NCBI GenBank assembly: GCA_964616985.1
Contig: CAZTVF010000005.1
Coordinates: 6,771-70,770 of the forward strand
Source of the DNA: an uncultured Planctomycetaceae bacterium
GTDB lineage: Bacteria > Planctomycetota > Phycisphaerae > SM23-33
Reading direction: 5' to 3'
Length of the DNA: 64,000 bases
Shown piece after piece: positions 1-50,668 of the stretch; the stretch's first letter is position 1, and each line of letters begins with the position of its first letter. The position numbers and the translations under genes are program-made. The notes beneath the pieces were generated by a model. It did no database searches, was not told where the DNA came from, and saw only the letters and a list, made by a program, of their open reading frames with translations.

Positions 1-457
1 CATCCGCTTCGTGGATGAGGTCGACGACGGCTTCCTTGGTCTGGCTCTGGCGCAGGAACTTGCGGAAGATGTCCCGCTGCACGTGCTTGAAGATCGTTTC
101 CATCGCCTGGAGGTGCTCATCGGGGCTGTCGGGGCTCGACAGCAGGAGGATGACCGAGTAGACGGGCTTGGCGTCCAGCGACGAGAAGTCGATGCCTTCG
201 CTGGAGCGGCCGATCGTCCCGATGGGCTTCTTGATGCCCTTGAGCTTGGCGTGGGGCAGGGCGACGCCCTTGCCGATGCCGGTGGTGGCCTGCGCTTCGC
301 GGGCGAGGATGGCCTTGGTGATGTCTTCCACGCTCTTTTTGGCAACGGCGCCGGCAGCGGCCAGCGCCTCAACCAATTCCACCACCGCCGCTTCGCGCGT
401 GGTCGCCTTCAATTCGGGGACGATCGCGTCGCTTACCATAATATCTGACAGCTTCAT
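1..457 (-). CDS. ptsN: PTS IIA-Ntr nitrogen regulatory protein (PtsN); N-terminus in window, runs off the left edge
   Basis: The minus-strand translation begins MKLSDIMVSDAIVPELKATTREAAVVELVEALAAAG and carries the phosphorylatable His in GKGVALPHAKL, typical of EIIA-Ntr. It lies directly downstream of hpf as in rpoN-hpf-ptsN clusters. It is absent from the ORF track because the gene extends past position 1. Confidence 0.7.
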   Translation of the reverse strand, partial: MKLSDIMVSDAIVPELKATTREAAVVELVEALAAAGAVAKKSVEDITKAILAREAQATTGIGKGVALPHAKLKGIKKPIGTIGRSSEGIDFSSLDAKPVYSVILLLSSPDSPDEHLQAMETIFKHVQRDIFRKFLRQSQTKEAVVDLIHEAD

Positions 458-525
458 GCATCGCTCCTGCTAACTGAGTACGCCCGCGCAGAGGCGGGCT
501 GGAACAACAGGTCTTCCAACCGCGG

Positions 526-855
526 CTACTCGCCGGCTTCAGACGTCTGCCCGTGCGAGGGGCCCTGACGGTCGCGCACCTTGTCTTTGTGCCGCCGAAC
601 CTGTTCGGAAATCTTGTGAAGGCACTGGTCGATGCACGTGTACATGTCCTCGTGGCGATCAGTGGCGACGAACTTGTTCTTCTTCTTGGCCGTGGCGACG
701 ATTTCCACCACGGACATGTCGGCTTGTTTATCCAGAATTACTTCGATCGACAGCAGGCTGTCGTAAAAACGCTCCAACTTGGACACCTTGGACGCCACAT
801 GCTCACGCAGGGTGTCGGTCACGTTCATGTGGCGAGCCTGAACCTGTATATCCAC
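526..855 (-). CDS. hpf: ribosome hibernation promoting factor / sigma-54 modulation protein (HPF/RaiA/YfiA family)
   Basis: 109 aa with a typical HPF fold signature (MDIQVQARHMNVTDTLREHVASKVSKLERF...VEIVATAKKKNKFVATDRHEDMY). It uses a GTG start preceded by AAGGAG and sits upstream of ptsN. Confidence 0.75.
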   Translation of the reverse strand: MDIQVQARHMNVTDTLREHVASKVSKLERFYDSLLSIEVILDKQADMSVVEIVATAKKKNKFVATDRHEDMYTCIDQCLHKISEQVRRHKDKVRDRQGPSHGQTSEAGE

Positions 856-1065
856 GCAAAAGCTCCTTTAAGAGCCCGTCGAGGGGCTCTCGCTTTGCGG
901 TGGTTTGTTCCGCCACCGCGCCGGTGCCAGACCATCCTAGTGACTGCCCCTGCGGGCGTCAAGTACTTGACAGGCAGCGAAGTTTCGCATAACACAGTTG
1001 CCGTCCTTTGTTTATTCCCACAGCCGATGCCCCCGCGGGGGCTCGTTCTTTTTGAAGAGGCTCCA

Positions 1066-2268
1066 ATGAAAGTCTTTGTCGTCAACTGCGGCAGCAGTTC
1101 CATCAAGTACCAGCTCTTCGACATGACCAATGAATCCGTCCTTGCCCGCGGCATCATGGAGCGGGTGGGCTCGGCCGACGCCAAGCTGGCCCACGTGGTC
1201 GGCGAGAAGAAGCATGAGAAGCAGGTGGCGGCCCCGAACCACACCGCCGGGATGAGGTTCATCCTGGAGGCCCTGGTCGACCCGCAGATCGGCGTGCTCA
1301 AGAGCATCGGCGAGATCAACGCCGTCGGCCATCGCGTGCTGCACGGCGGGGAGAAGATCTCGGCCACGTGCGTCATCGACGAGAAGGTCATCGCGGTGAT
1401 CAAGGAGAACTTCGTCCTGGGCCCCCTGCACAACCCGCCGAACCTGATGGGCATCGAGGCGGCGATGAAGGACATGCCGGGCGTGCCCAACGTGGCGGTT
1501 TTCGACACGGCGTTTTTCAGCACGCTGCCGCCCAAGGCCTACCGCTATGCCGTGCCCGAGGAGTGGTATCGCAAGCACCACGTGCGGCGGTACGGTTTCC
1601 ACGGCACGAGCCATCGCTACGTCACGCGCCGTTCGGCCCAGCTGCTGGACAAGCCCCTCGACCAGGTCAACCTGATCACCGTGCACCTGGGCAACGGGTG
1701 CTCGATGACCGCGGTGGCCGGGGGCAAGGCCATCGACCACTCCATGGGCATGACGCCGCTGGAGGGCCTGGTAATGGGCACGCGAAGCGGCGACATCGAC
1801 CCGGCCATCCTGCCCTACATGATCGGCCGAGCCAACCTCACCCCCGAGCAGATCGACACCATCCTCAACAAGTCCTCGGGCCTGCTGGGGCTCAGCGGCA
1901 TCAGCAACGACATGCGTGACCTGCTGGCCGCCGAGGCCAAGGGCGAGAAGTACGCCGAGCTGGCCCTGTCGGTGTTCGTCTACCGCATCCTGAAGTACAT
2001 CGGCTCGTATTACACGATCCTGCCGGCGCTGGACGCGATCGTGCTGACCGGCGGCATCGGCGAGAATTCGCTGCCGATCCGCCATCGCGTCTGCGAGGGC
2101 CTCTCGCGCCTCGGCGTCCGCCTGGACCCCCAGCGCAACGAACGCACCATCCGCGGCGTCCATGGCCCCATCTCGGCCGAGGGCTCGCCCCTGGCCGTCT
2201 GGGTCGTGCCCACCAACGAAGAACTCATGATCGCCCGCGACACCGCCGAAGCCGTGAAGAGACAGTAA
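1066..2268 (+). CDS. ackA: acetate kinase
   Basis: The translation from the internal ATG is MKVFVVNCGSSSIKYQLFDM...GFHGTSHRYV...VHLGNGCSMTAV, the canonical AckA N-terminus and motifs, 400 aa. The track ORF 553-2268 carries a spurious 171-aa N-terminal extension. Confidence 0.85.
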   Translation: MKVFVVNCGSSSIKYQLFDMTNESVLARGIMERVGSADAKLAHVVGEKKHEKQVAAPNHTAGMRFILEALVDPQIGVLKSIGEINAVGHRVLHGGEKISATCVIDEKVIAVIKENFVLGPLHNPPNLMGIEAAMKDMPGVPNVAVFDTAFFSTLPPKAYRYAVPEEWYRKHHVRRYGFHGTSHRYVTRRSAQLLDKPLDQVNLITVHLGNGCSMTAVAGGKAIDHSMGMTPLEGLVMGTRSGDIDPAILPYMIGRANLTPEQIDTILNKSSGLLGLSGISNDMRDLLAAEAKGEKYAELALSVFVYRILKYIGSYYTILPALDAIVLTGGIGENSLPIRHRVCEGLSRLGVRLDPQRNERTIRGVHGPISAEGSPLAVWVVPTNEELMIARDTAEAVKRQ

Positions 2269-2289
2269 AACCGGGAGCCATGCCCCGCA

Positions 2290-2650
2290 GCCGACGGGTG
2301 CCATGAGGTGCCATGGGTGCCATGCTTTTAGCCCCGCAGGGGCAAAAGCATGTTTACAGCGCACCCAATCACGGATGACGTCGGGGTCTGGAACGTGTGA
2401 CGACTGTCCCCCCGTTGGCGCGAAGAAAAGAGAAACCGGGGTCATCGTCTCATCCGCTCCGCCTCGCAAGTTCTGCCCACACGTCGCTATCGCTCGGCCT
2501 TTCTGCGCTGTAGACCCGGCATTTGCGGACGGCTGGGAGTGCGGCGCCGGTTGTATAAACATGCTTTTGCCCCTGCGGGGCTAAAAGCATGGCACCCGGA
2601 ATAGGAGCATGGCACCCGGAGCAAGAGCATGGCACCCGGAGCGCAGGCGT
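2290..2650. repeat. MITE-like element: ~40-bp terminal inverted repeats with subterminal short tandem repeats around a ~200-bp core
   Basis: The left arm GGGTGCCATGCTTTTAGCCCCGCAGGGGCAAAAGCATGTTTA (about 2318-2358) is the near-perfect reverse complement of the right arm (about 2556-2597). Outside the arms are 3x GGTGCCATG on the left and 3x GCATGGCACCCGGA on the right. Each arm is itself a 14-bp-stem hairpin followed by a T-run facing the core. Confidence 0.5.
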
Positions 2651-5799: not shown

Positions 5800-8700
5800 A
5801 TGAAACTAAGAAAGCTGATCCTTTCGGGCTTCAAGAGTTTCGCGGACCGGACTGAATTCGACTTCGACGACGGCATCAGTTGCGTTGTCGGCCCCAACGG
5901 CTGCGGCAAGAGCAACGTGGTCGATGCCTTCAAGTGGGTCCTCGGGGAACAGTCGGCCAAGAGCCTCCGCGGTACGGAGATGATGGACGTCATCTTCAAC
6001 GGCTCGTCGGCGCGCAAGCCCGCGGGCATGGCCGAGGTCACGCTGGTTTTCGACAACAGCGACGGGCTGCTCCGCATCCCCAACTCCGGCGAGACCACGC
6101 CCCAGACGGCCATCTCCGTCACCCGCCGCCTATACCGCAGCGGGCAGAGCGAGTACCTCATCAACAAGCTGCCCAGCCGCCTGCGCGACATCCGCGAGAT
6201 GTTCATGGACACCGGCGTGGGCGTCGACGCCTACAGCGTCATCGAGCAGGGCAAGGTCGAGGTCTTCCTCCAGTCCTCGCAGGACGACCGCCGCGCCATC
6301 TTCGACGAGGCCGCCGGCATCAGCAAGTACAAGGCCCGCAAGAAGGAGGCCCTCCGCAAGCTCGAACGCGTCGAGCAGAACCTCCTCCGCGTCACCGACA
6401 TCCAGGCCGAGGTCGAGAAGCGCCTCCGCTCCATCAAGTACCAGGCCGGCAAGGCCCGCAACTACCAGGAATATAGCGAGCGCCTCAAGGACCTCCGCTC
6501 GCTGTTCTTCCAGGCGCAGTACCACACGCTGTCGGGCTCGCGCACGGAACTGCAGAAGAAGCTCGACGCCGCCACCGACAACCTCGGCCGCATCACGGCC
6601 ATGATCGAACAGCTGGAGACCGCCCGCCGCGGCGTGGAGGTCGAATCGGCGGACCTCGACGGCACGGCCCGCGAACTGCAGGGCCGCGTAGGCTCGGTCA
6701 CCGGCCAGATCTCCACCCGCAAGGAACGCGTCGAGATGCTGTCCTCGCGCGTGGGCGAGCTCGGCCAGCAGATCGTCGCCGCCGTCGCCCGCTGCGAGGA
6801 ACTCGAGGCCAAGATCGAGGCCTTCGACCAGGCGTTCAACGCCCGCCGCGAGGACCTCGTCCGCGTGGAGGTGCAGTCGACGGAGCTGGCGCAGAAGTGC
6901 GAAGCGGTCCGCATCGAGCACACGTCGAAGGAAGCGGACATCACCGAGCTGGCCGACCGGCTGGAAGATGAGAAGGCCGGCACGATCGACCTGCTCCGCC
7001 GCACCGCGCAGCTGCACAACGAAATCCAGTCTCACAGCATCCGCCGCGAGAATCTCGCCGGCCAGCAGACCCGCCTCAGCGGTCGGGCCGAGGAGATCGC
7101 CACGGCCCTGACGGCGCTGTTCGAGCAGCGGGCCGCCGTGGAGATCAAGGTGGCCGAAGTGCGCGAGGTGCTCACCGCCTCGCAGGCCCGCCTCGAAGAG
7201 ATCAAGCAGGCGGGCAAGGATCTCGACGCCACCCGCCAGGCCGCCCAGACCGAACTGGGCAACCATCGCGAGCAGCGCAGCGCCCTGCAGAGCCGCATCC
7301 AGGCCCTGCGCGAGATGCAGGCCCGCCGCGAAGGCGTCGCCGCCGGCGTCCGCAACGTGCTGGAGGCCGCCCAGAAGAACGAACTGCCCGCCATCCGCGG
7401 CATGCTCGGCGACTTCCTCCAGTCCGACGTGCAGCACGCACAGATCGTCGAGGCCGCCCTGGCCGGGGCCGACCAGTCGCTGCTGGCCGCCCGCTACGAC
7501 GACCTCGCCGCCGCCAGCGAAAAGATCACCAAGATCCTCGGCGGCAAGGGCGCCGTCGAAGTCCTCTGCCTCGACCGCCTCGAGACATTCACCCAGGACT
7601 TCGAGCTCGCCTCCTGTCCGCAGATCAACGGCCGCGTCATGGACTGGGTCACCTTCGACGGCGACCTCGCCCCGCTGATGTGGCGGCTGCTGGGCAAGAC
7701 CTACGCGGTGGCCACCATGGCCGACGCCGCGGCGGCCGCTGCCGTCGCGCCGCGCGGCTCGCGATTCGTCACCGCCGGCGGTGAAGTGCTTGAGGCCGAC
7801 GGCCGCGTGCGCCTCGGCGCCGCCAACCGCGGGGCCGGCGTCATCGCCCGCCGCAGCGAGATGGTCGAGCTGGAGGCCCGCGTGGCCCAACTCGATCAGA
7901 AAATCGAGGAGCTCCAGGCCCGCTGCCAGACCATGCGGTCGGAGCGCGAGCACCTGGAGGAACTGCAGCAGAAGATTCGCACGGCCATCTACGAGGCCAA
8001 CACCATCCGCGTCGAGTGCGTCAGCCGCCTGGGCGCCCTGAACGAGCAGGCCGGCAAGCTCGAGCGTGAAAAGCCCCTGGTGGCCGAGGACCTCAAGAAC
8101 CTCGCCCTGCAGGTGGAGCAGGCCGTCTCGCGCGAGCACCAGGCCCGCGAGAAGGCCGCCGAGCTGGAGGCCCTCAACGCCGAACGCCAGCAGGAGGTCG
8201 CCCGCCTGACCGAGGAGATCGCCGCCGCCCGCTCGCGGCAGGCCCAGCTGACCGCCCAGCTCACTGAGCACAAGGTGGCCCTGGCCCAGTCGCAGGAAAA
8301 GATCCTCTCGCTGAAGGAGGCGATCAACTCGCTCTCCCGCCAGCGCGAGCAGATGGCCAACGACATCACCTCCGGCCGCTCCGAGATCGAGCTCTCCCGC
8401 CATCGCCGCACCGAGGCCGAAGAAGGGATCAAGGCCGCCCAGGTCGAGTTGGAGCGCCTCTCGGCTGAGAAGGAGACCCTCGAGGGCGAGCTGCAGGACG
8501 TGGAAGAGACCCGCAAGGGCCTGTTCGAGAAGCTCGAGGAGATCCGCCGCCAGCTGACCGCCCAGCGAGGCGAGCACGACCAGGCCTCCAACAAGCTCAA
8601 CAAGAACCGCGTCGAGCTCAGCGAGGCCGATGTCCGCATCGAGAACCTCATCTCCCGAGCTTCGGACGAAATGCAGATGAACCTGCTGGAGCGGTTCGCC

Positions 8701-9590: not shown

Positions 9591-9654
9591 GGTGGCGGCC
9601 TTCCCAGGCCGCCGCCAGATTGATGAGACGCAATGGTGGGCAAGCCTGCCCACC
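9591..9654. repeat. two REP-like hairpins: family 1 (GGTGGCGGCCTTCCCAGGCCGCCGCC) and family 2 (GGTGGGCAAGCCTGCCCACC)
   Basis: Both are perfect short palindromic stems (GGCGGCCT/AGGCCGCC and GGTGGGCA/TGCCCACC). Copies of the same sequences recur elsewhere in the window. Confidence 0.55.
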
Positions 9655-15904: not shown

Positions 15905-16120
15905 TGTCATGGGTCCCGTAGGGACCGCTGAAGCTAGCCCAGCACTTTAGTGCTGGGTCAGGGGGCCGAGCGCACTTGAGTCCCGTAGGGACGATTGAAA
16001 CGTTTCAGTCGTCCCTGCGGGACTCAGAATGCGGGGAATACCTGCGTTTCCCCAGCACTGAAGTGCTGGGCTATTCTCAGCCGTCCCTACGGGACGCAGT
16101 AGCGGAAAAGCCATCCCACG
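15905..16120. repeat. cluster of short perfect palindromes in the convergent intergenic spacer
   Basis: GTCCCGTAGGGAC, CGTCCCTGCGGGACT/AGTCCCGTAGGGACG and CGTCCCTACGGGACG occur together with CCCAGCACTTTAGTGCTGGG and CCCAGCACTGAAGTGCTGGG and TGAAACGTTTCA. They are arranged as two inverted super-units. Confidence 0.5.
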
Positions 16121-20158: not shown

Positions 20159-20211
20159 GGGCATACTATAGATGATGACGTCGAGGCAGGGCAATTGCAT
20201 TATTCAAGGGT

Positions 20212-20233
20212 CGGCGGCCTTCCCAGGCCGCCA
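20212..20233. repeat. REP family 1 copy (GGCGGCCTTCCCAGGCCGCCACC)
   Basis: It matches the hairpin repeat seen at 9591, 32058, 43796, 43838 and 50598. Confidence 0.5.
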
Positions 20234-20672
20234 CCACAGCCGTCTGCAGTTGGCGGCCCAGGAAGGTCGCCACCCCGAATCACAACCGTCGTCGCGAGCG
20301 GTCTGCTGAGTCGCGAAATGGGCATCGCTCGGCTGCTCAGGGCCTCTGGAGCCTTCATCACCGGTTTTACGGCCGGTAAGCCCAAGAGGGCAAAAAATCT
20401 TTAACGGATTGCCGGACAAGAAGATACATCGAAAACTGCGACTTTTCGTCTGGGTTTGGCCGTGCAATTCCAACGATTTGAGGTGATGATCCCTAATCAC
20501 AAAATCCTTAGCTTGCCGATTTATAAGCTAAGACGAGCCCGTTGGGCTCGCCGGCGATCCGTTCAACGCCGGGGAAAACTGGACCGGTGCGGAATCGCAG
20601 TATGAGGCCGCTTCCGGCGTACACTTAGGCTAAGTCCCCTTAGTTTGGACAGGACGCGCTGGAGAAAGGCAA

Positions 20673-23339: not shown

Positions 23340-23454
23340 GCGTCCGGCGGCACGCGAGATTTCTTCGCCCCGCCGATGCTCGGCTATCGCTCGCCTTTCG
23401 GCGCTGTTCGATAGTTGATGCCGGGCGAAGCCGGTTTCACATGGCACCTCGTCT

Positions 23455-28976: not shown

Positions 28977-29750
28977 GTGCCGGGCAGCCAGACAATTCAA
29001 TCGGTGGAGCGGGCGATGGACGCCCTTGAGCGCATCGCGCAGGCGCCGCAGGGCCTGACGCTGGCGGCGCTGGCGGCGGGGCTGGGCCTCAAGCCGCCCA
29101 CCGCGCACGCGATCCTGCGGACGCTCGCCGCCCGCGGCTACCTCCGCCGCCTGGACAAGCCCGCGCGGTACGCGATCGGGCCGGCTGCGGCGGCCTTGGC
29201 TGCGGCGGGCGCGCCGCTCCCCTGGCGCCAGGCCGCCCACGAGGCCATGGCCCGCCTCGCACGCCAGTTGCCCAAGGCCACCGTCGTCCTGGTGGAGGCC
29301 GTTGGCGGAGAGCTGATGACGACGCGGCGGATGAGCCCCGAGCAGCCGGGCGTCCTCCAGAAGCCCTCCCACCAGGTCATGTCGCCCTATTCCTCCGCCT
29401 CCGACCTGGCTTTTCTCGCCTTCGCGCCGGCCGATGCCGCGGCCAGCCATTGCCGCCGCTACCCCTTTGCCGAGTACGGCGCGCACCAGTGGCGCGGTGA
29501 GGCCGAGCTGGAGACCTTTCTCCAGCGGGCCCGCCGCCTGGGATACGCGCTGCGGGTGGACGCATTCTACCTCCTTCGGGCGGCCGCTCCGCTTCTGTCG
29601 CCCGAGGGCGAGCTGCTGGCGATGCTGGGGGTCTCGGCCCCCAAGGCCGGGATGACGCCGGCGATGAAGAAGAACATGATCGCCCGCCTGCTGGCGGCGA
29701 CCTCTGCGATCCATCAATCACTCAAACTTACCGCACAGGAGATCTCATGA
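28977..29750 (+). CDS. IclR-family transcriptional regulator
   Basis: It has an N-terminal wHTH (SVERAMDALERIAQAPQGLTLAALAAGLGLKPPTAHAILRTLAARGYL) and an IclR-type C-terminal effector domain. It uses a GTG start. Confidence 0.7.
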   Translation: MPGSQTIQSVERAMDALERIAQAPQGLTLAALAAGLGLKPPTAHAILRTLAARGYLRRLDKPARYAIGPAAAALAAAGAPLPWRQAAHEAMARLARQLPKATVVLVEAVGGELMTTRRMSPEQPGVLQKPSHQVMSPYSSASDLAFLAFAPADAAASHCRRYPFAEYGAHQWRGEAELETFLQRARRLGYALRVDAFYLLRAAAPLLSPEGELLAMLGVSAPKAGMTPAMKKNMIARLLAATSAIHQSLKLTAQEIS

Positions 29751-30757
29751 CGCTGACATCGGAATTCATCAAGAAGGAAGCACTCGCGCTGGGCGCCGAC
29801 GCCGTCGGCATCGGCAGCATCGATCGCTGGGCGGGGGCGCCCCTCCAGCAGGACCCGCGGCAGATCATGCCCGAGGCGCGGTCGGTCATCGCGCTGGCCT
29901 TTCGCGTGATGCGCGGCAGCCTGCGCGGCATCGAGGAGGGCACGTTCTTTTCAAACTATTCCGCTATGGGATACGGCGGCATCACGTACCTGTACATGCC
30001 GATGACGGTGATCAACGTCGCCAAGATCATCGAGGACGTCGGCTACGAGGCCATCCCGTATGGCCACCAGAGCGACTGGCGCGGCATCGATAACGTCGGG
30101 CAGACGTATGACCATTTCAGCCGTCCCGTCGCCCCCGGCCGCGCGGCCCCGGACGTGGCGGTGCATCTCCGCATCGCGGCGTACCTGTGCGGCCTGGGCG
30201 AGATCGGCTTCTCGAAGATGCTCCTGACGCCGCAGTTCGGGCCCCGGCAGCGCGTGGGCATCATCCTGACCGAGGCCGAACTGGAGCCCGACCCGATCTA
30301 CGCGGGCCCGCCGCTGTGCAACCGCTGCCTGGCGTGCGTCCGCGAGTGCCCCGGCAAGTGCTTCGACCCCTCCAAGACCGTGAAGGTCACGCTGGCCGGT
30401 CGCGAGGTCGAGTGGATGGACATCGACTGCAACGCCTGCGACGTCGCCTTCCGCGGCGCGGTGGTGGACGATTCGACGCCCCCGCAGGAGTCGTACATGG
30501 ACACCTTCGGCCACCGCACGCGGCCGGGGTCGTGGTCGCCGTTCTACAAGAAGCCTCGCAACCTCTACAACACCGGCCAGGCCGTCTGCGGCTCGCGAGG
30601 CTGCACGCGTGCGTGCATGATCTCGATGGAGTCTCGCGGGGTCGTGGCCAACAAGTTCCACCAGCCCTTCCGGCGGCGCAAGCCCTGGAGCATCGACTGG
30701 TCGCAGCCGCCGGCGGACGGTGAATCCACGGATGGTCTCAAGAGCGACACGGACTGA
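29747..30757 (+). CDS. QueG/reductive-dehalogenase-like iron-sulfur protein (DUF1730-like N-domain plus 4Fe-4S ferredoxin motif), paralog 1
   Basis: LGADAVGIGSIDRW...PEARSVIAL...YLCGLGEIGFSKMLLTPQFGPRQRVGIILTEAELEPDPI...PLCNRCLACVRECPGKC follows the QueG order (LGFDLVGI/ARSVI/LGWIGKN..ELEPD/CxxCxxCxxxCP). Additional Cys clusters lie downstream. Confidence 0.5.
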   Translation: MTLTSEFIKKEALALGADAVGIGSIDRWAGAPLQQDPRQIMPEARSVIALAFRVMRGSLRGIEEGTFFSNYSAMGYGGITYLYMPMTVINVAKIIEDVGYEAIPYGHQSDWRGIDNVGQTYDHFSRPVAPGRAAPDVAVHLRIAAYLCGLGEIGFSKMLLTPQFGPRQRVGIILTEAELEPDPIYAGPPLCNRCLACVRECPGKCFDPSKTVKVTLAGREVEWMDIDCNACDVAFRGAVVDDSTPPQESYMDTFGHRTRPGSWSPFYKKPRNLYNTGQAVCGSRGCTRACMISMESRGVVANKFHQPFRRRKPWSIDWSQPPADGESTDGLKSDTD

Positions 30758-30823
30758 AAGGGCGATGCGACCGGGCAAGCAGGGCGGCTCACCGTCGGTC
30801 GGTAGTAGTGCCCTGCAATACAA

Positions 30824-30944
30824 TATGTGAATGCGTGTGGCGGCGGCTTGCCGTTCGGCGCTGTCAGATATGGGTGACGGCATGGGCTTCTACAGCGCCG
30901 AACGGCAAGCCGGCGCCAAAGCCTTGCTCCAAGACTGAACCGTG
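30824..30944. repeat. ~115-bp long-stem hairpin element, copy A (21-23-bp perfect inverted repeat around a 29-nt loop)
   Basis: The stems are GGCGGCTTGCCGTTCGGCGCTGT ... ACAGCGCCGAACGGCAAGCCG. The conserved flanks are ATGTGAATGCGT upstream and CGCCAAAGCCTTGCTCC..AACCGTG downstream. The second copy at 33229-33350 has the loop reverse-complemented. Confidence 0.6.
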
Positions 30945-30970
30945 GAAAACTAATACAAGAGGTGAACGGG

Positions 30971-32014
30971 ATGAGCCTGAGCAGTGCGGACATCAAGAGG
31001 CGTGCGATGGAGCTTGGCGCCGACCTCGCCGGCATCGGGAACATCGAGCGATGGCAGGGGGCGCCGCGCCAGATGGACCCGCTGCAGATCATGCCCGAGT
31101 GCCGCAGCATCATCGTCATGGGCTTCCGCGTGCACCGCGGCACGCTGCGCGGCATCGAGGAGGGCACGATGTTCAGCAACTACGCGGCCATGGCGTACGG
31201 CGGCATCACGTACCTCCGCATGCCGCCGGTCATGTGGGGCCTGGCCGACATGATCGAGGATGAGGGCCACGAGGCCGCACCCATCGGCCAGATCGACTGG
31301 TGGCGAAGCTACGACGACGCCGGGCGCGTGTGGAAGGGCTTCAGCCGGCCTGTTGCCGAGGGCAAGGCCGCACCCGACGTGTCCATCCACACCCGCGTGG
31401 CCGCCTACCTCGCCGGCCTGGGCGAGTTCGGCTGGAGCAAGGTCTTCCTCACGCCGCAATTCGGCCCCCGGATGCGGTTCGGCATCGTGCTGACCGACCT
31501 GGAAGTGGAGCCGGATCCGATCTACGCCGGCCCGCCGCTGTGCAATCGCTGCATGGCCTGCGTCCGCGAATGCCCCGCCAAGGCCATCAGCCCCGACAAG
31601 AGCACCAAGGTCGTCCTGGCCGGCCACGAAGTGGAGTACGGCGAGTTCGACGCCATCCGCTGCTGCAACGTGTTCGGCGGCGGGGAGATTCCCGACGACC
31701 AGGCCTCGATCAAGAATGAGGATATTTACTCCTCCTGGCTGGGGCTCAAGTCCGTCCGGGGCTCGCACACGCCGTTCTGCAAGAAGCCCTCGCCCGTCTA
31801 TTGGACCGGCCAGGCCATCTGCGGCGGCAAGGGCTGCGTGCGGGCGTGCATGATGTCGCTCGAGGCCCGCAAGGCCGTGGGCAACCAGTTCAAGTCGCCC
31901 TTCCGCCGGCGCAAGCCGTGGTCCGTCGACTGGACGAAGGACGCCCCCGCAATCGAGGATCCCATCGCCGATTACCGTCCCCCGGCCGACCGCCCGGCCG
32001 AGGACTTTAGCTGA
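30971..32014 (+). CDS. QueG/reductive-dehalogenase-like iron-sulfur protein, paralog 2 (tandem duplicate)
   Basis: It is about 60% identical to the upstream ORF over its full length (MSLSSADIKRRAMELGADLAGIGNIERWQGAP...CNRCMACVRECPAKA). It has an RBS AGAGG. Confidence 0.5.
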   Translation: MSLSSADIKRRAMELGADLAGIGNIERWQGAPRQMDPLQIMPECRSIIVMGFRVHRGTLRGIEEGTMFSNYAAMAYGGITYLRMPPVMWGLADMIEDEGHEAAPIGQIDWWRSYDDAGRVWKGFSRPVAEGKAAPDVSIHTRVAAYLAGLGEFGWSKVFLTPQFGPRMRFGIVLTDLEVEPDPIYAGPPLCNRCMACVRECPAKAISPDKSTKVVLAGHEVEYGEFDAIRCCNVFGGGEIPDDQASIKNEDIYSSWLGLKSVRGSHTPFCKKPSPVYWTGQAICGGKGCVRACMMSLEARKAVGNQFKSPFRRRKPWSVDWTKDAPAIEDPIADYRPPADRPAEDFS

Positions 32015-32023
32015 AAACTGGCG

Positions 32024-32083
32024 TGGCGGCCTTGCGGGGCCGCCGCCAGAGCCCTGAGGGTGGCGGCCTTCGCAGGCCGCCGC
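32024..32083. repeat. two adjacent REP family 1 copies (variant GGCGGCCTTGCGGGGCCGCCGCC, then GGCGGCCTTCGCAGGCCGCCGCC)
   Basis: This is the sequence immediately after the Fe-S paralog 2 stop codon. Confidence 0.5.
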
Positions 32084-32148
32084 CCGTCATATGAGCAGCG
32101 ACAGAAGGCATAGCGCGATCGAACGCTTGACGCAACCGTAGAAGGCAC

Positions 32149-33204
32149 ATGATGACCAAGACAAGCGACAGCACGTTCCCGCGGTTCTCGGTCGGCTACC
32201 AGCTCGCCGAGGAGGGCGAAGAGTCGTTCGTTGACATCGTGAGCGACTACCGGCCGCACGTGGCGGAGGTGTACTTCCCGTGGGCCGCCATGCCCTCGGG
32301 GCGGGCCTCGCTGACCGAGCGGCGGGGCTACGTCGATTGGTCCGGCCAGGGGCGCCTGGAAGCTGACCTCAAGGCGCTGCGCGCGATGGGCGTGCGGCTG
32401 AACGTGCTGTTCAACGCGAACTGCTACGGCGGCAAGGCCGTCAGCGAGTACCTGCAGAACCAGGTAGCTTCGGTGATGGAACGCCTGCAGGAAGTCTGCG
32501 GCGGGGCCGACGTGGCCACCACCTGCTCGCCCGCCATCGCGCGGCTGATCAAGACGCACTTCGCCGCCACGCGGACGCGGGCGTCGGTCAACATGCGGAT
32601 CGGCACGGTGCAGGGCATGCAGTACGTGGCCGACATCTTCGACGAATTCTGCGTGCAGCGCGACTACAACCGCGACCTTGGCCGCCTGCGCCAGCTGCGC
32701 CAGTGGGCCGACGCGCACGGCAAGAGCCTGTCGATCCTGGTCAACAGCGGGTGCCTCGCCTTCTGCAGCGGGCAGACGTTCCACGACAACCTCGTCGCGC
32801 ACGAGCGCGAGGTGGATGAGAGCGTCAACGTCGCCGGGTGGTCACCCACGGTGTGCTGGGGGCTGCTGAAGGACAAGGCGAATTGGCCGGTGCTGCTGCA
32901 GTCCACGTGGGTCCGCCCCGAGGACATCGGCCAGTACCGCGGCCTGGTGGACATGGTCAAGCTGGCCACGCGGATGCACCAGCGGCCGCGGATGGTGATC
33001 GCCGCGTACGTGCGGGCCCGCCACCATGGAAACCTGCTGGACCTGATGGAGCCCGCCTTCTCGCCCGCGATCGCCCCGGCCGTCATCGAGAACGACCGCA
33101 TGCCCGCGGACTTCTTCGAGCGCACCAGCCAGTGCGATCGCCAATGCGACCGCTGCGGCTACTGCGCCGAGGCGCTGTCCAAGGCGCTGGTGACCCCGGA
33201 GTGA
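32149..33204 (+). CDS. hypothetical protein (Cys-rich C-terminus CDRQCDRCGYC; possible TIM-barrel enzyme)
   Basis: It is a 351-aa ORF with coding-like composition followed by a hairpin element. No confident family assignment was possible from the sequence alone. Confidence 0.3.
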   Translation: MMTKTSDSTFPRFSVGYQLAEEGEESFVDIVSDYRPHVAEVYFPWAAMPSGRASLTERRGYVDWSGQGRLEADLKALRAMGVRLNVLFNANCYGGKAVSEYLQNQVASVMERLQEVCGGADVATTCSPAIARLIKTHFAATRTRASVNMRIGTVQGMQYVADIFDEFCVQRDYNRDLGRLRQLRQWADAHGKSLSILVNSGCLAFCSGQTFHDNLVAHEREVDESVNVAGWSPTVCWGLLKDKANWPVLLQSTWVRPEDIGQYRGLVDMVKLATRMHQRPRMVIAAYVRARHHGNLLDLMEPAFSPAIAPAVIENDRMPADFFERTSQCDRQCDRCGYCAEALSKALVTPE

Positions 33205-33228
33205 GAGCTCGTAGTTCGTAACACTCCA

Positions 33229-33350
33229 GTATGTAAATGCGTCTGGAGGCGGCTTGCCGTTCGGCGCTGTAGAAGCCCCAGGGCGTCACCCATACCTGAC
33301 AGCGCCGAACGGCAAGCCGCCGCCAAAGCCTTACTCCCAGATTCAACCGT
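33229..33350. repeat. ~115-bp long-stem hairpin element, copy B (loop inverted relative to copy A)
   Basis: It has the same stems and same-orientation flanks as copy A. Its loop AGAAGCCCCAGGGCGTCACCCATACCTG is approximately the reverse complement of the copy-A loop CAGATATGGGTGACGGCATGGGCTTCTAC. Confidence 0.6.
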
Positions 33351-33359
33351 GCAGGATTA

Positions 33360-34769
33360 CTACGCCTTCACCGGCGGGCGGGTGAAGGGGCGGCGGGGCA
33401 GGGAGGTCGCCGTCTGGTATCGCCCGGGCGTGATGTGCTCTTCACCGATCACGCCGCCAGCGGCGAGCAGGTGCTGCTGCAGCATCGCGACGGGAAGCTG
33501 GCGGGGCGTGACGCCCTGGCGGATGGAAAGAGCCGCCGCGGCGCCGGCGGCCTCGCCCGTGCCCGCGCACTGGGCCATCACCCGCGTGGAGCCCAGGGCG
33601 ACGTGCGTGACGCTGATGCAGCGCCCGGCCACGAGGATGTTCTCGATCTTCCGCGGGACCAGCACGCGGTAGGGGATGTGGTAGCGGAAGCCCGTTCGCG
33701 GCCGCCACGTCGTGCCGTCCATGCCGGGCCCGTCGATGCGGTGGATGTCGATGAAGAACGAGCCGTAGCAGATGTTGTCGTCGAAACGGCACTCCTTCAT
33801 GATGTCCTGCTCGGTCAGGACGTACTCGCCCATGATCCGCCGCGACTCGCGCAGGCCGATCGTGTTGGGCGTCGAGACAAGGTAGCACTCCTCCATGCCG
33901 GCGACGTACTTGCGGAAGACGTCGATGCAGTGGAAGGCCTGGCGTCGGGCCTCGATGGTCGCGCGCGTCAGGTCCTCGGCCTTGGTCGTGTCGATGCCGT
34001 TGACGTGCGTGAAGTTGATGCCCACGAAGTGCGGCTGCGACGAATTCCACCAGAAGCCCATGATGCAGTGCTGAAAGGGCTCCATGTCGCCGTTCTGCTG
34101 GGCCTTCTCCCACACGTGGTTCATGCCGTAGCTCTGCTTGCCGTCGGGCCCGACGCGCCACGCCTCGACCTTCGCCCAATCGACGCCGCCGATGGTGAAC
34201 ATCAGCGTGACGGGCTGGCACTTGTGGTCGCCGGGGCGGCCGACTTCAAACTCGCAGCCGGCCGAGGCGGCGAGGTCGCCGTCGCCGGTGCAGTCGACGA
34301 GGCGCTTGGCGAAGACGGCCTGGCGGCCGGTCTTGTTCTGGATGACCGCCCCGACGGCGGCGCCGTCGCGGACGATCGCGCCGCACAGGAAGGTGTGGTA
34401 GAGGATCTCAACTTTCGACTCGAGCATCATCCGCTCGAGGAGGAACTTGAGCCCCTCGACGTCGAAGAACGCGCCGCCGGGGTAGCGGTCGCCGAAGCCC
34501 TCGTCGCAGACGCGGTCGACGATCTCAGCGGCGATGCCGCCGACGATGCGGTCCTGGTCGCCCCAGCTGGAGTAGATGGCCATGTAGCCGTGCCCGCCGG
34601 CCCCGGCCACGCCGCCGAGGCAGTTGAACTGCTCGACCAGCAGCGTGCGCTGCCCCAGCCTGGCCGCCGCCAGCGCCGCAGCCACGCCCGCCGGCCCGCC
34701 GCCGGCCACCACAACGTCATACTCGCCCTTGACGGGCAGTTCCCTGGCCTCTTCGAAATACCGCTGCAT
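33360..34769 (-). CDS. FAD-dependent oxidoreductase (FAD_oxidored / glucose-inhibited-division-like Rossmann family)
   Basis: It has the dinucleotide-binding motif YDVVVAGGGPAGVAAALAAARLG and a C-terminal GTGEAAGAAAAL motif. The start was set at MQRYFEE. Confidence 0.65.
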   Translation of the reverse strand: MQRYFEEARELPVKGEYDVVVAGGGPAGVAAALAAARLGQRTLLVEQFNCLGGVAGAGGHGYMAIYSSWGDQDRIVGGIAAEIVDRVCDEGFGDRYPGGAFFDVEGLKFLLERMMLESKVEILYHTFLCGAIVRDGAAVGAVIQNKTGRQAVFAKRLVDCTGDGDLAASAGCEFEVGRPGDHKCQPVTLMFTIGGVDWAKVEAWRVGPDGKQSYGMNHVWEKAQQNGDMEPFQHCIMGFWWNSSQPHFVGINFTHVNGIDTTKAEDLTRATIEARRQAFHCIDVFRKYVAGMEECYLVSTPNTIGLRESRRIMGEYVLTEQDIMKECRFDDNICYGSFFIDIHRIDGPGMDGTTWRPRTGFRYHIPYRVLVPRKIENILVAGRCISVTHVALGSTRVMAQCAGTGEAAGAAAALSIRQGVTPRQLPVAMLQQHLLAAGGVIGEEHITPGRYQTATSLPRRPFTRPPVKA

Positions 34770-38946: not shown

Positions 38947-39034
38947 GAGATGGCTCCGTAGAGGTGATGCCCCTATTCTCTAGCCACCCCTGGACGAAAT
39001 GCAAGGAAATAGATTACGCGTGGGGCCAGAAATC

Positions 39035-39134
39035 GGAAGCACGAAGCCCAAAAACTCGAAGCACGAAGCCCAAAAACTCGAAGCACGAAGCACGAAATCC
39101 GAAACAAGCCCGAATACGGGTTCGGATTTCGTGC
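39035..39134 (-). terminator. candidate terminator region for the upstream minus-strand gene: tandem 22-bp repeats plus a 14-bp-stem hairpin
   Basis: GAAGCACGAAGCCCAAAAACTC occurs twice, then GCACGAAATCCGAA-(18-nt loop containing the CCCGAATACGGG sub-hairpin)-TTCGGATTTCGTGC. On the minus strand the hairpin is followed by GAGTTTTTGGG. Confidence 0.35.
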
Positions 39135-39151
39135 TTCGGATTTCGGATTTC

Positions 39152-43795: not shown

Positions 43796-43864
43796 GGGTG
43801 GCGGCCTTCCCAGGCCGTCGCCTGCAGCGCCCGTCTTGGGTGGCGGCCTTCCCAGGCCGCCGCC
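43796..43864. repeat. two REP family 1 copies (GGGTGGCGGCCTTCCCAGGCCG(T/C)CGCC) 15 bp apart
   Basis: They lie in the divergent intergenic spacer between the nucleoside hydrolase and aroA. Confidence 0.55.
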
Positions 43865-50577: not shown

Positions 50578-50597
50578 AACCGCATGATGCTTGATGG

Positions 50598-50668
50598 GGT
50601 GACGGCCTTCCCAGGCCGCCGCCGGGCGGTCTGTTGGTGGCAGCCTGGGAAGGCCGCCTCCCTGGCCG
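50598..50668. repeat. REP family 1 copy plus an inverted degenerate copy
   Basis: GGTGACGGCCTTCCCAGGCCGCCGCC ... GCAGCCTGGGAAGGCCGCC. Confidence 0.5.

Follow-up and report, generated by a model that had tools for sequence, protein, structure and literature searches.

Two copies of an extragenic hairpin element with oppositely oriented loops in the genome of an uncultured planctomycete

Hairpin copies A and B

The window analyzed here, which is the whole stretch of 64,000 nucleotides (64 kb) between positions 6,771 and 70,770 of contig CAZTVF010000005.1 (assembly GCA_964616985.1), belongs to an uncultured Planctomycetaceae bacterium of the class Phycisphaerae. The AroA protein likewise assigns it to this class of the Planctomycetota, with 73-76% identity to its best named matches. 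Between positions 28977 and 33363 the window contains, in this order, a gene pair formed by an IclR gene and P1, a hairpin-forming element (copy A), a second gene pair formed by P2, a paralog of P1, and G3, and another copy of the element (copy B). A first-pass annotation had described the element as a long-stem hairpin of about 115 bp with a loop that is reverse-complemented between the two copies, while stems and flanks keep the same orientation. The two copies are made up of the following features (window coordinates):

30805-30956, plus strand: entire copy A, comprising the hairpin and both flanks, between the paralogous genes P1 and P2; direct-repeat families D4 and D5
30838-30864, plus strand: left arm of copy A (inverted repeat I4), with the core 20-mer GGCTTGCCGTTCGGCGCTGT at 30845-30864; exact 19-mer match
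30865-30891, plus strand: loop of copy A, 27 nt, CAGATATGGGTGACGGCATGGGCTTCT; reverse complement of the loop of copy B at 24 positions
30892-30918, plus strand: right arm of copy A, with the reverse-complemented core ACAGCGCCGAACGGCAAGCC at 30892-30911
33211-33363, plus strand: copy B as a whole, between the stop codon of G3 (plus strand) and the stop codon of a convergent FAD-dependent oxidoreductase gene (minus strand)
33244-33270, plus strand: left arm of copy B (inverted repeat I3), core at 33251-33270; confirmed in Logan contig L127
33271-33298, plus strand: loop of copy B, 28 nt, AGAAGCCCCAGGGCGTCACCCATACCTG; reverse complement of the loop of copy A
33299-33325, plus strand: right arm of copy B, core at 33299-33318; Logan contig L128 breaks at 33318

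Each arm is 27 nt long with 96% complementarity to its partner, and the repeat finder returned a perfect core of 21 bp in copy A and of 23 bp in copy B, which agrees with the perfect stem of 21-23 bp proposed initially. The hairpins are framed by flanks that match between the two copies in direct orientation (30805-30837 with 33211-33243 and 30919-30956 with 33326-33363), with local alignment scores of 14 and 20 as compared to a shuffle mean of about 6 (p<0.0005). Beyond these limits the similarity ends, and the homologous unit measures about 152 nt instead of about 115 nt. No significant palindromy was found when the left flank was compared with the reverse complement of the right flank (p = 0.39-0.59). 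As the flanks are direct and not palindromic, the inversion is confined to the inner hairpin with its breakpoints inside the arms; an inversion of the whole element, or a set of palindromic flanks, is ruled out by this comparison. Both copies do lie 3' of plus-strand genes, as had been noted, but not right after the stop codons, from which hairpin A is separated by 81 nt and hairpin B by 40 nt.

Loop A and the reverse complement of loop B match at 24 positions with one 1-nt indel, which corresponds to a global alignment score of 19. In direct orientation the two loops score -9, and 20,000 loop shuffles averaged -4.6 and never exceeded 11. Direct flanks combined with reverse-complemented loops were thus borne out by alignments and shuffles, and the observation is real and non-random. 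The degree of divergence differs among the parts of the element. The loops are distinguished by three substitutions and one indel (4/28 positions, 14%) and the flanks by 19/71 positions, whereas the arms differ at 2/54 positions (arms vs. flanks, Fisher p = 0.0005) and not at all within the 23-nt core (0/46).

The loop orientation of copy B is supported by sequence data beyond the analyzed contig. Logan contig L127 (SRR12261225) ends in the 31-mer CTGGAGGCGGCTTGCCGTTCGGCGCTGTAGA, which joins the B-specific left arm (TGGAGG...) to AGA, the 3 nt with which loop B begins as read in the window. L127 ends at window position 33273 and L128 (SRR21799890) at 33318, both ends falling within the arms of element B or beside them. 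These two contigs are independent assemblies of the same genome, which they match at 100% identity. As both of them stop at element B, the hairpin breaks short-read assemblies. Strings that are diagnostic for the orientation are GGAGGCGGCTTGCCGTTCGGCGCTGTAGAAG and GGAGGCGGCTTGCCGTTCGGCGCTGTCAGGT at locus B, and GTGTGGCGGCGGCTTGCCGTTCGGCGCTGTCAGAT and the same prefix ending in ...GCTGTAGAAG at locus A.

A 20-nucleotide repeat family

Within the window, the 19-mer contained in the arms is present in four copies, which are the four arms themselves, and in one degenerate solo copy (chance expectation: 0.05). Every copy of the 20-mer in the window is intergenic. The solo copy is enclosed in a small local hairpin or inverted repeat, CTATCG...CGATAG:

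23388-23407, plus strand: degenerate solo 20-mer GCTCGCCTTTCGGCGCTGT with 3 mismatches (the TCGAT that comes after it is likewise found in the metagenome family); intergenic, after a GH35 gene

A scan of metagenomes yielded the exact 19-mer GCTTGCCGTTCGGCGCTGT in 109 contigs from several organisms, most of them from the samples Ga0114951 and Ga0105099 and the rest from several further samples, with a GC-content between 48 and 73%. When up to 4 mismatches were allowed, 176 half-sites were counted. The set includes 43 inverted doublets of the polarity ACAGCGCCGAACGGCAAGCC-spacer-GGCTTGCCGTTCGGCGCTGT with spacer classes of 11-12, 26, 31, and 39-44 nt, and 8 doublets of the opposite polarity, which is that of the window and comprises the two window copies. 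Overall, the spacers span 11-61 nt in discrete classes, and one site pair 150 nt apart was also counted. About 70 sites are solo, some of them being chance matches inside genes. As the contigs were selected by an exact match to one arm, any comparison of conservation between doublets and singlets would be biased by this choice.

According to a position-by-position profile, only the 20-21-mer is conserved over the whole set. Arms from sample Ga0114951 reach further outward, to about 32 nt (GTCCGNNATCGA followed by ACAG...), and the spacer there follows the polar consensus ...CACAGGG.CAAGAC.TGGTCGAG. The arms in the window are also longer than the 20-mer, but they are extended on the side GCCGCCA, which is opposite to the extension in Ga0114951. 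The GC3/GC2 coding-frame criterion classified 78/82 paired arms and 59/77 solo sites (about 86% together) as intergenic, and the copies in the metagenome contigs sit between ordinary housekeeping genes. The 20-mer does not contain a stop codon in any of the six frames. In one contig (L063) a gene for a GH3 beta-glucosidase/xylosidase (59-2479, minus strand) includes two in-frame solo units (377-396 and 1148-1167) of about 42 nt each, with the peptide SNSAERQATSSxQG. The second unit is located opposite gaps in the chain of the solved enzyme 7zb3. The HMMER alignment is shifted at the first unit, where the extra residues were deduced by comparing the conserved motifs on both sides, LLKNDG..LPL and IGPNA. 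Judged from these in-frame units, the 20-mer unit can be inserted into DNA, comparable to Rickettsia palindromic elements.

A second case of discordance between loop and flank was found in two contigs of a genome unrelated to that of the window. The 43-nt loops of L027 (1978-2060) and L045 (67-149) match directly, while the single flank that both have in common, CTCTTGCCCATTCCCGC, matches in inverted orientation. This supports the idea of a free polarity of the loop within the 20-mer family. Furthermore, the constraint on the arms of copies A and B and the identity of the 20-mer across genomes point to selection acting on the arm sequence itself, for example as a recognition site, rather than on pairing alone.

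The family has no entry in Rfam. Searches with the window copies and 15 metagenome loci against Rfam 15, at gathering as well as at permissive E-values, returned just generic microRNA-precursor hairpin matches far below gathering. Likewise, the stem 14-mers were not found in any paper of the searched literature, a BLAST search of element A against plasmids and phages yielded nothing relevant, and a scan of viral contigs yielded only two chance matches inside coding sequence.

Two further repeat arrangements were noticed in contigs with members of this family. Contig L073, which has a GC-content of 73%, carries at 942-1021 a head-to-tail array of at least 4 diverged 20-nt units (ACAGCGCCGAACGGCAAGCG, ACAGCGCCGAACGACGAGCG, and others), which are arranged in tandem and are not inverted. 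In the Ga0114951 contigs L027, L085, and L109 the hairpin motif CACCCCCAAGCGGAARRGARTCCGCTTGAGGGTG recurs at a distance of 40-70 nt from 20-mer doublets.

Gene context and orthologous loci

The genes around the two copies, and a pair of small hairpins that resemble repetitive extragenic palindromic (REP) elements, are located as follows:

29747-30757, plus strand: P1, QueG/RdhA-like 4Fe-4S protein, paralog 1, upstream of copy A; ortholog of a 337-aa gene in contigs L125/L126 (88% amino acid identity)
30971-33204, plus strand: gene pair P2 (30971-32014) and G3 (PrtC/U32-like, 32149-33204); ortholog of the pair P2'-G3' in contig L123 (85-88% nucleotide identity)
32023-32084, plus strand: two small REP-like hairpins GGCGGCC-N6-GGCCGCC (family D11) in the P2/G3 intergenic region; absent from the ortholog in L123

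At the orthologous loci that were retrieved from related genomes, the genes are kept and both elements are absent. In L125/L126 the IclR-P1 pair is 82.5% identical on the DNA level, and the next gene starts 9 nt past the stop codon of P1 with no element in between. The gap between P2' and G3' in L123 is 8 nt, and a different small hairpin repeat occupies the position that copy B has in the window. L124 contains IclR, one paralog, and G3 without any element. Copies A and B bracket the 2.3-kb P2-G3 pair, which stands in place of the native G3-like partner of P1 that directly follows P1 in L125/L126. Judged from these comparisons, the DNA enclosed by A and B has the appearance of a replacement or an insertion at a break in gene order. 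Another origin considered for the direct copies, the integration of a circle with P2-G3 at a resident element in the Campbell manner, was rejected. As donor and resident loops would have to be in opposite orientation, the requirement of a flip would remain.

Copy A is located inside a probable P1-P2-G3 transcript and copy B between convergent genes. The hairpins of 81-82 nt have a minimum free energy of -55 to -64 kcal/mol, and the elements together with their flanks reach folding z-scores of -4.7 to -7.3. The first-pass proposal that the element might be a terminator found no support as far as the canonical form is concerned. The terminator scan revealed no terminator-like site at A or B, and neither hairpin is followed by a U-tract, the arms being followed on the plus strand by CCAAAGCC and on the minus strand by CACACGC or CAGACGC. 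Given the stability of the hairpins and the position of the two copies in a probable transcript and between convergent genes, it is nevertheless plausible that the element influences mRNA 3' ends in the manner of REPs. By analogy with REP elements, the hairpin might act in mRNA as a barrier at the 3' end or as a partial terminator. Between 30600 and 33500 no promoter-like site was predicted (0 hits), and none of the 38 open reading frames of the 64-kb window encodes a recombinase, invertase, or transposase domain.

The small hairpins between P2 and G3 belong to a second and more frequent REP-like family, GGGTGGCGGCCTTCCCAGGCCGCCGCC, in which a stem of 7 bp closes a loop of 6 nt. Its members occur singly, as direct pairs, and as inverted pairs, at 9594-9613, 20208-20276, 32023-32084, 43797-43864, and 50597-50662. 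The small hairpin at the position of copy B in L123 is also one of them.

Origin of the opposite loop orientations

With a probability of roughly 0.55 we favor the explanation that A and B are members, about 150 bp in size, of a previously undescribed family of extragenic palindromes which resembles REP elements, bacterial interspersed mosaic elements (BIMEs), and REP doublets forming hairpins (REPINs), and that the spacer became passively inverted between its own arms. A programmed switch is unlikely. According to this explanation the functional core would be the 20-nt unit GGCTTGCCGTTCGGCGCTGT, two of which are placed tail to tail around a spacer of 27-28 nt in the window and would, as single-stranded DNA or as RNA, fold into a hairpin of high stability. 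As the arms are perfect inverted repeats, the spacer would not have any fixed polarity. It could be flipped by intramolecular recombination (a crossover) between the arms, by a template switch of the replication machinery at the hairpin, or by gene conversion or single-strand annealing with another or a single-stranded copy via the palindromic arms. Each of these routes would keep the flanks intact, and one flip after the divergence of A and B from a common ancestor would lead to the present state. The inversion would then be a by-product of the palindrome and not a regulated event. These routes rest on the established instability of inverted repeats and on the hairpin-loop inversions of plastids.

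The latter are the nearest mechanistic analog of the difference between A and B. In these 'flip-flop' inversions (e.g., PMC6342102; PMC12371153), a short loop is reverse-complemented between perfect short inverted repeats within collinear surroundings, which is attributed to recombination or template switching in the hairpin. Plastid inversions, however, concern single-copy organellar loci that are compared between taxa, whereas A and B are paralogous copies of a repeat on one bacterial chromosome. The location of the breakpoints inside the arms fits the recombination between arms that had been proposed in the first-pass annotation. The accompanying idea of a miniature switch under regulation is not supported, given the size of the spacer, the lack of a promoter-like site and of a recombinase, and the loop divergence of 14%. 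The alternative offered alongside it, a mobile or structured unit indifferent to the orientation of its loop, gains support from the extragenic occurrence of the 20-mer in multiple genomes and from the absence of the elements from orthologous loci. Their spread probably involved some form of transposition.

REP sequences are known to form head-to-head or tail-to-tail dimers with spacers of 20-100 bp, which fold into one large stem-loop, and some copies are located in genes (Di Nocera et al., 2013; PMC3733652). REP doublets forming hairpins, the REPINs, are mobilized by RAYT transposases (Bertels and Rainey, 2011; PMC3116915). The 20-mer described here resembles REPs and BIMEs in being short, present in many copies, mostly extragenic, often located downstream of genes, and found as solo sites as well as in inverted dimers of both polarities (43 and 8 dimers), with spacers in the 20-100 bp range. 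In addition, some of its spacers are conserved and others variable, some copies lie inside genes, and the dimers fold into one large stem-loop. It resembles REPINs in that the inverted doublet and its spacer fold into a long hairpin with discrete spacer classes, that the solo sites look like decayed or half elements, and that its presence varies among close relatives. Unlike in REP/BIME families, the exact 20-mer is common to contigs of very different GC-content. Small, non-autonomous, palindromic repeats also bring to mind miniature transposable elements with inverted repeats (MITEs), and the in-frame insertions in the GH3 gene recall Rickettsia palindromic elements. In contrast to MITEs, however, target-site duplications are lacking next to the arms as well as on either outer side of the 152-nt homology, a parent insertion sequence with matching terminal repeats was not seen, and the copies in the window are intergenic.

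Several observations weigh against the favored explanation. The 20-mer has an internal stem of just 3-4 bp (GCC-GUUC-GGC plus one G-U pair) as compared to 8-9 bp in tagged REP families, and no GTAG or CGTC tag adjoins the stem, so that it is not a textbook REP unit. In both copies a GTAGT marks the outer left edge at a distance of 33 nt from the stem, with ACTAC as its mirror image at the right edge of copy B only, which is not significant. Contrary to REPINs, no gene for a RAYT (Y1/HUH) could be linked to the repeat, and neither the window nor the retrieved loci, including the intervals between two units, revealed a cognate transposase of the RAYT or any other type. A phmmer search of all retrieved DNA with IS200 TnpA and E. 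coli RAYT queries found nothing either, which is a weak negative. As the 20-mer behaves like REPs and REPINs but has no proper stem-loop and no tag of its own, it is best read as a new REP/REPIN-like family of a familiar kind, whose membership in the RAYT-linked class is unproven. Moreover, the inversion is reconstructed from two end states. An all-against-all comparison of loci gave no pair of contigs with the same hairpin locus in different states, and neither an intermediate nor heterogeneity within a population was seen in this contig comparison. The orientation of loop A comes from a single assembly. Neither the loops nor the flanks of the window copies have any homology to metagenome copies, and the window subfamily could not be enlarged. 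The 20-mer is thereby the sole link of A and B to the family. With just two full copies in the 64-kb window, loop orientation could not be tabulated for the genome. A scan of a genome collection with the pattern GCCGTTCGGCGC-N(24-50)-GCGCCGAACGGC, which detects the minority polarity only, returned 13 palindromes, all of them unrelated, and says nothing on named genomes; the pattern that corresponds to the majority polarity is GCGCCGAACGGCAAGCC-N(10,50)-GGCTTGCCGTTCGGCGC.

A doubtful but not far-fetched alternative is a nested or modular insertion, in which the inner hairpin of 81-82 bp would be mobile and would have entered, or replaced a resident hairpin in, two copies of a repeat of about 70 bp, once in each orientation and without any inversion in place. 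This would fit with the unrelated flanks of 20-mer doublets and solo sites in other genomes, with the ability of solo units to insert anywhere, even in frame in a gene, and with L027 and L045 having one flank alone in common. The nominally lower divergence of the loop (14%) relative to the flanks (24-30%) might be taken in the same sense, but this difference is not significant (p = 0.29). Two independent insertions at the identical position of a diverged target would, however, be required, and neither an empty target nor a further copy of the flanks was present in the window or any retrieved locus. The junctions between arms and flanks also do not show any target-site duplication.

It appears unlikely that selection acts mainly on an RNA element, such as a structured 3' untranslated region or an intercistronic stabilizer, in which the stem alone matters and repetition arises from convergent or duplicative recruitment. 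The position of both copies just downstream of plus-strand genes, their extremely stable hairpins, and the conservation of the arms combined with a drifting loop would be expected for such an element. The REP survey cited above also reports that most REPs are located downstream of genes and regards them as likely RNA elements (PMC3733652). On the other hand, the arms are kept as an exact sequence over genomes of differing GC-content, which goes beyond mere pairing, and there are many solo units, from which the long hairpin cannot form. Doublets of either polarity exist and face either way with respect to genes, and a U-tract is absent. A role as RNA is compatible with a passively inverted REP-like palindrome and is no replacement for it.

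A more far-reaching and distinctly improbable idea is that the two states are the footprint of propagation. The element would be copied or moved through a single-stranded hairpin or cruciform intermediate, on which a nickase or resolvase dedicated to it (such as a RAYT-like enzyme of the HUH type) would act, and each round could leave the spacer in either orientation between invariant recognition arms of 20 nt. The hairpin termini of parvoviruses and poxviruses (e.g., PMC8956199) likewise exist as two flip/flop isomers with the same stem and mutually reverse-complementary loops. Viral hairpins of this kind, however, are the ends of linear genomes and are resolved during replication, whereas A and B are internal chromosomal sites. 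We know of no resolvase or nickase for hairpins of the A/B type. If the idea were true, the element would be a chromosomal bacterial analog of these viral termini, and the exact identity of the 20-mer across genomes, the doublets in both polarities, and the in-frame solo units would be explained together.

It is very improbable that one of the loops, most likely loop A, was wrongly oriented by the assembler and that A and B are in fact simple direct repeats. Indeed, a spacer between inverted arms that are longer than k cannot be oriented by an assembler of the short-k de Bruijn type. The window comes from a metagenome-assembled contig of 79,060 bp, the Logan assemblies break inside or beside the hairpin, which marks the region as hard to assemble, and copy A on the plus strand and copy B on the minus strand have a common string of 30 nt over the arm and the start of the loop. 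Yet, the perfect arms measure just 21-23 bp, which is below the usual final k and far below read size, and the differences at four positions identify the loops as separate sequences that were each assembled with their own flanks. For copy B, the 31-mer that links the locus-specific mismatch in the arm to the start of the loop was found in an independent run, and a second discordance between loop and flank is known from other metagenome contigs.

Finally, a programmed micro-inversion, in which a site-specific recombinase would flip the loop of 27-28 nt on demand, for example to allow kissing of the loops in two transcripts, is very unlikely: although perfect inverted arms enclose an invertible segment, the same strand carries loops A and B as complementary sequences, and both copies are located in or beside the same operon-like gene cluster, there is no promoter-like site in 30600-33500 and no recombinase among the 38 open reading frames, the three substitutions and the indel between the loops are expected of long-fixed states, the Logan contig at locus B agrees with the window, and relatives keep the genes yet lack the elements. 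The recombinase-driven invertible elements known so far are far longer than 27-28 nt. Invertons share with A and B the inverted repeats flanking a segment that is found in both orientations, but here the segment comprises 27-28 nt without promoter or nearby recombinase in 64 kb, the orientations are found at two loci and not at one, and L127 exhibits the window orientation at B. The loop divergence of 14% looks like that of old, fixed states. Kissing of loops A and B is energetically possible, with a computed duplex energy of -38.5 kcal/mol, which is an automatic consequence of the loops being complementary.

The copies A and B do not overturn the current understanding. They add a REP/REPIN-like family, with an unusually well conserved 20-nt core, for the Planctomycetota (Phycisphaerae and relatives), and they provide a clean natural example of a palindromic repeat whose spacer is inverted while the surroundings are undisturbed, which illustrates a known instability. 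In most REP dimers such a flip would be invisible because their flanks are unrelated. On a practical level, hairpins of this kind break short-read assemblies and mark points at which gene order changes, as A and B do by bracketing the two-gene replacement segment. A flipped loop without population data does not provide any ground for calling a regulatory switch.

Other structured sequences were observed elsewhere in the window. At 39030-39150, downstream of a gene for a 949-aa protein, a low-complexity array of tandem and inverted repeats (AAACTCGAAGCACGAAGC..., TTCGGATTTCGTGCTTCGGATTTCGG) resembles the tandem arrays (TTCGCACTACGCAC, AATTCGCGATTCGCG, CCGGCTACCGGCTAC) that flank 20-mer doublets in Ga0105099 contigs. 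At 16051-16096 the Rfam family Acido-Lenti-1 RNA was matched above its gathering threshold (54.9 bits vs. 37) in this Phycisphaerae genome. This match is preceded by a near-perfect 25-bp palindrome at 15977-16026, with which it has the motif CCGTAGGGACG in common.

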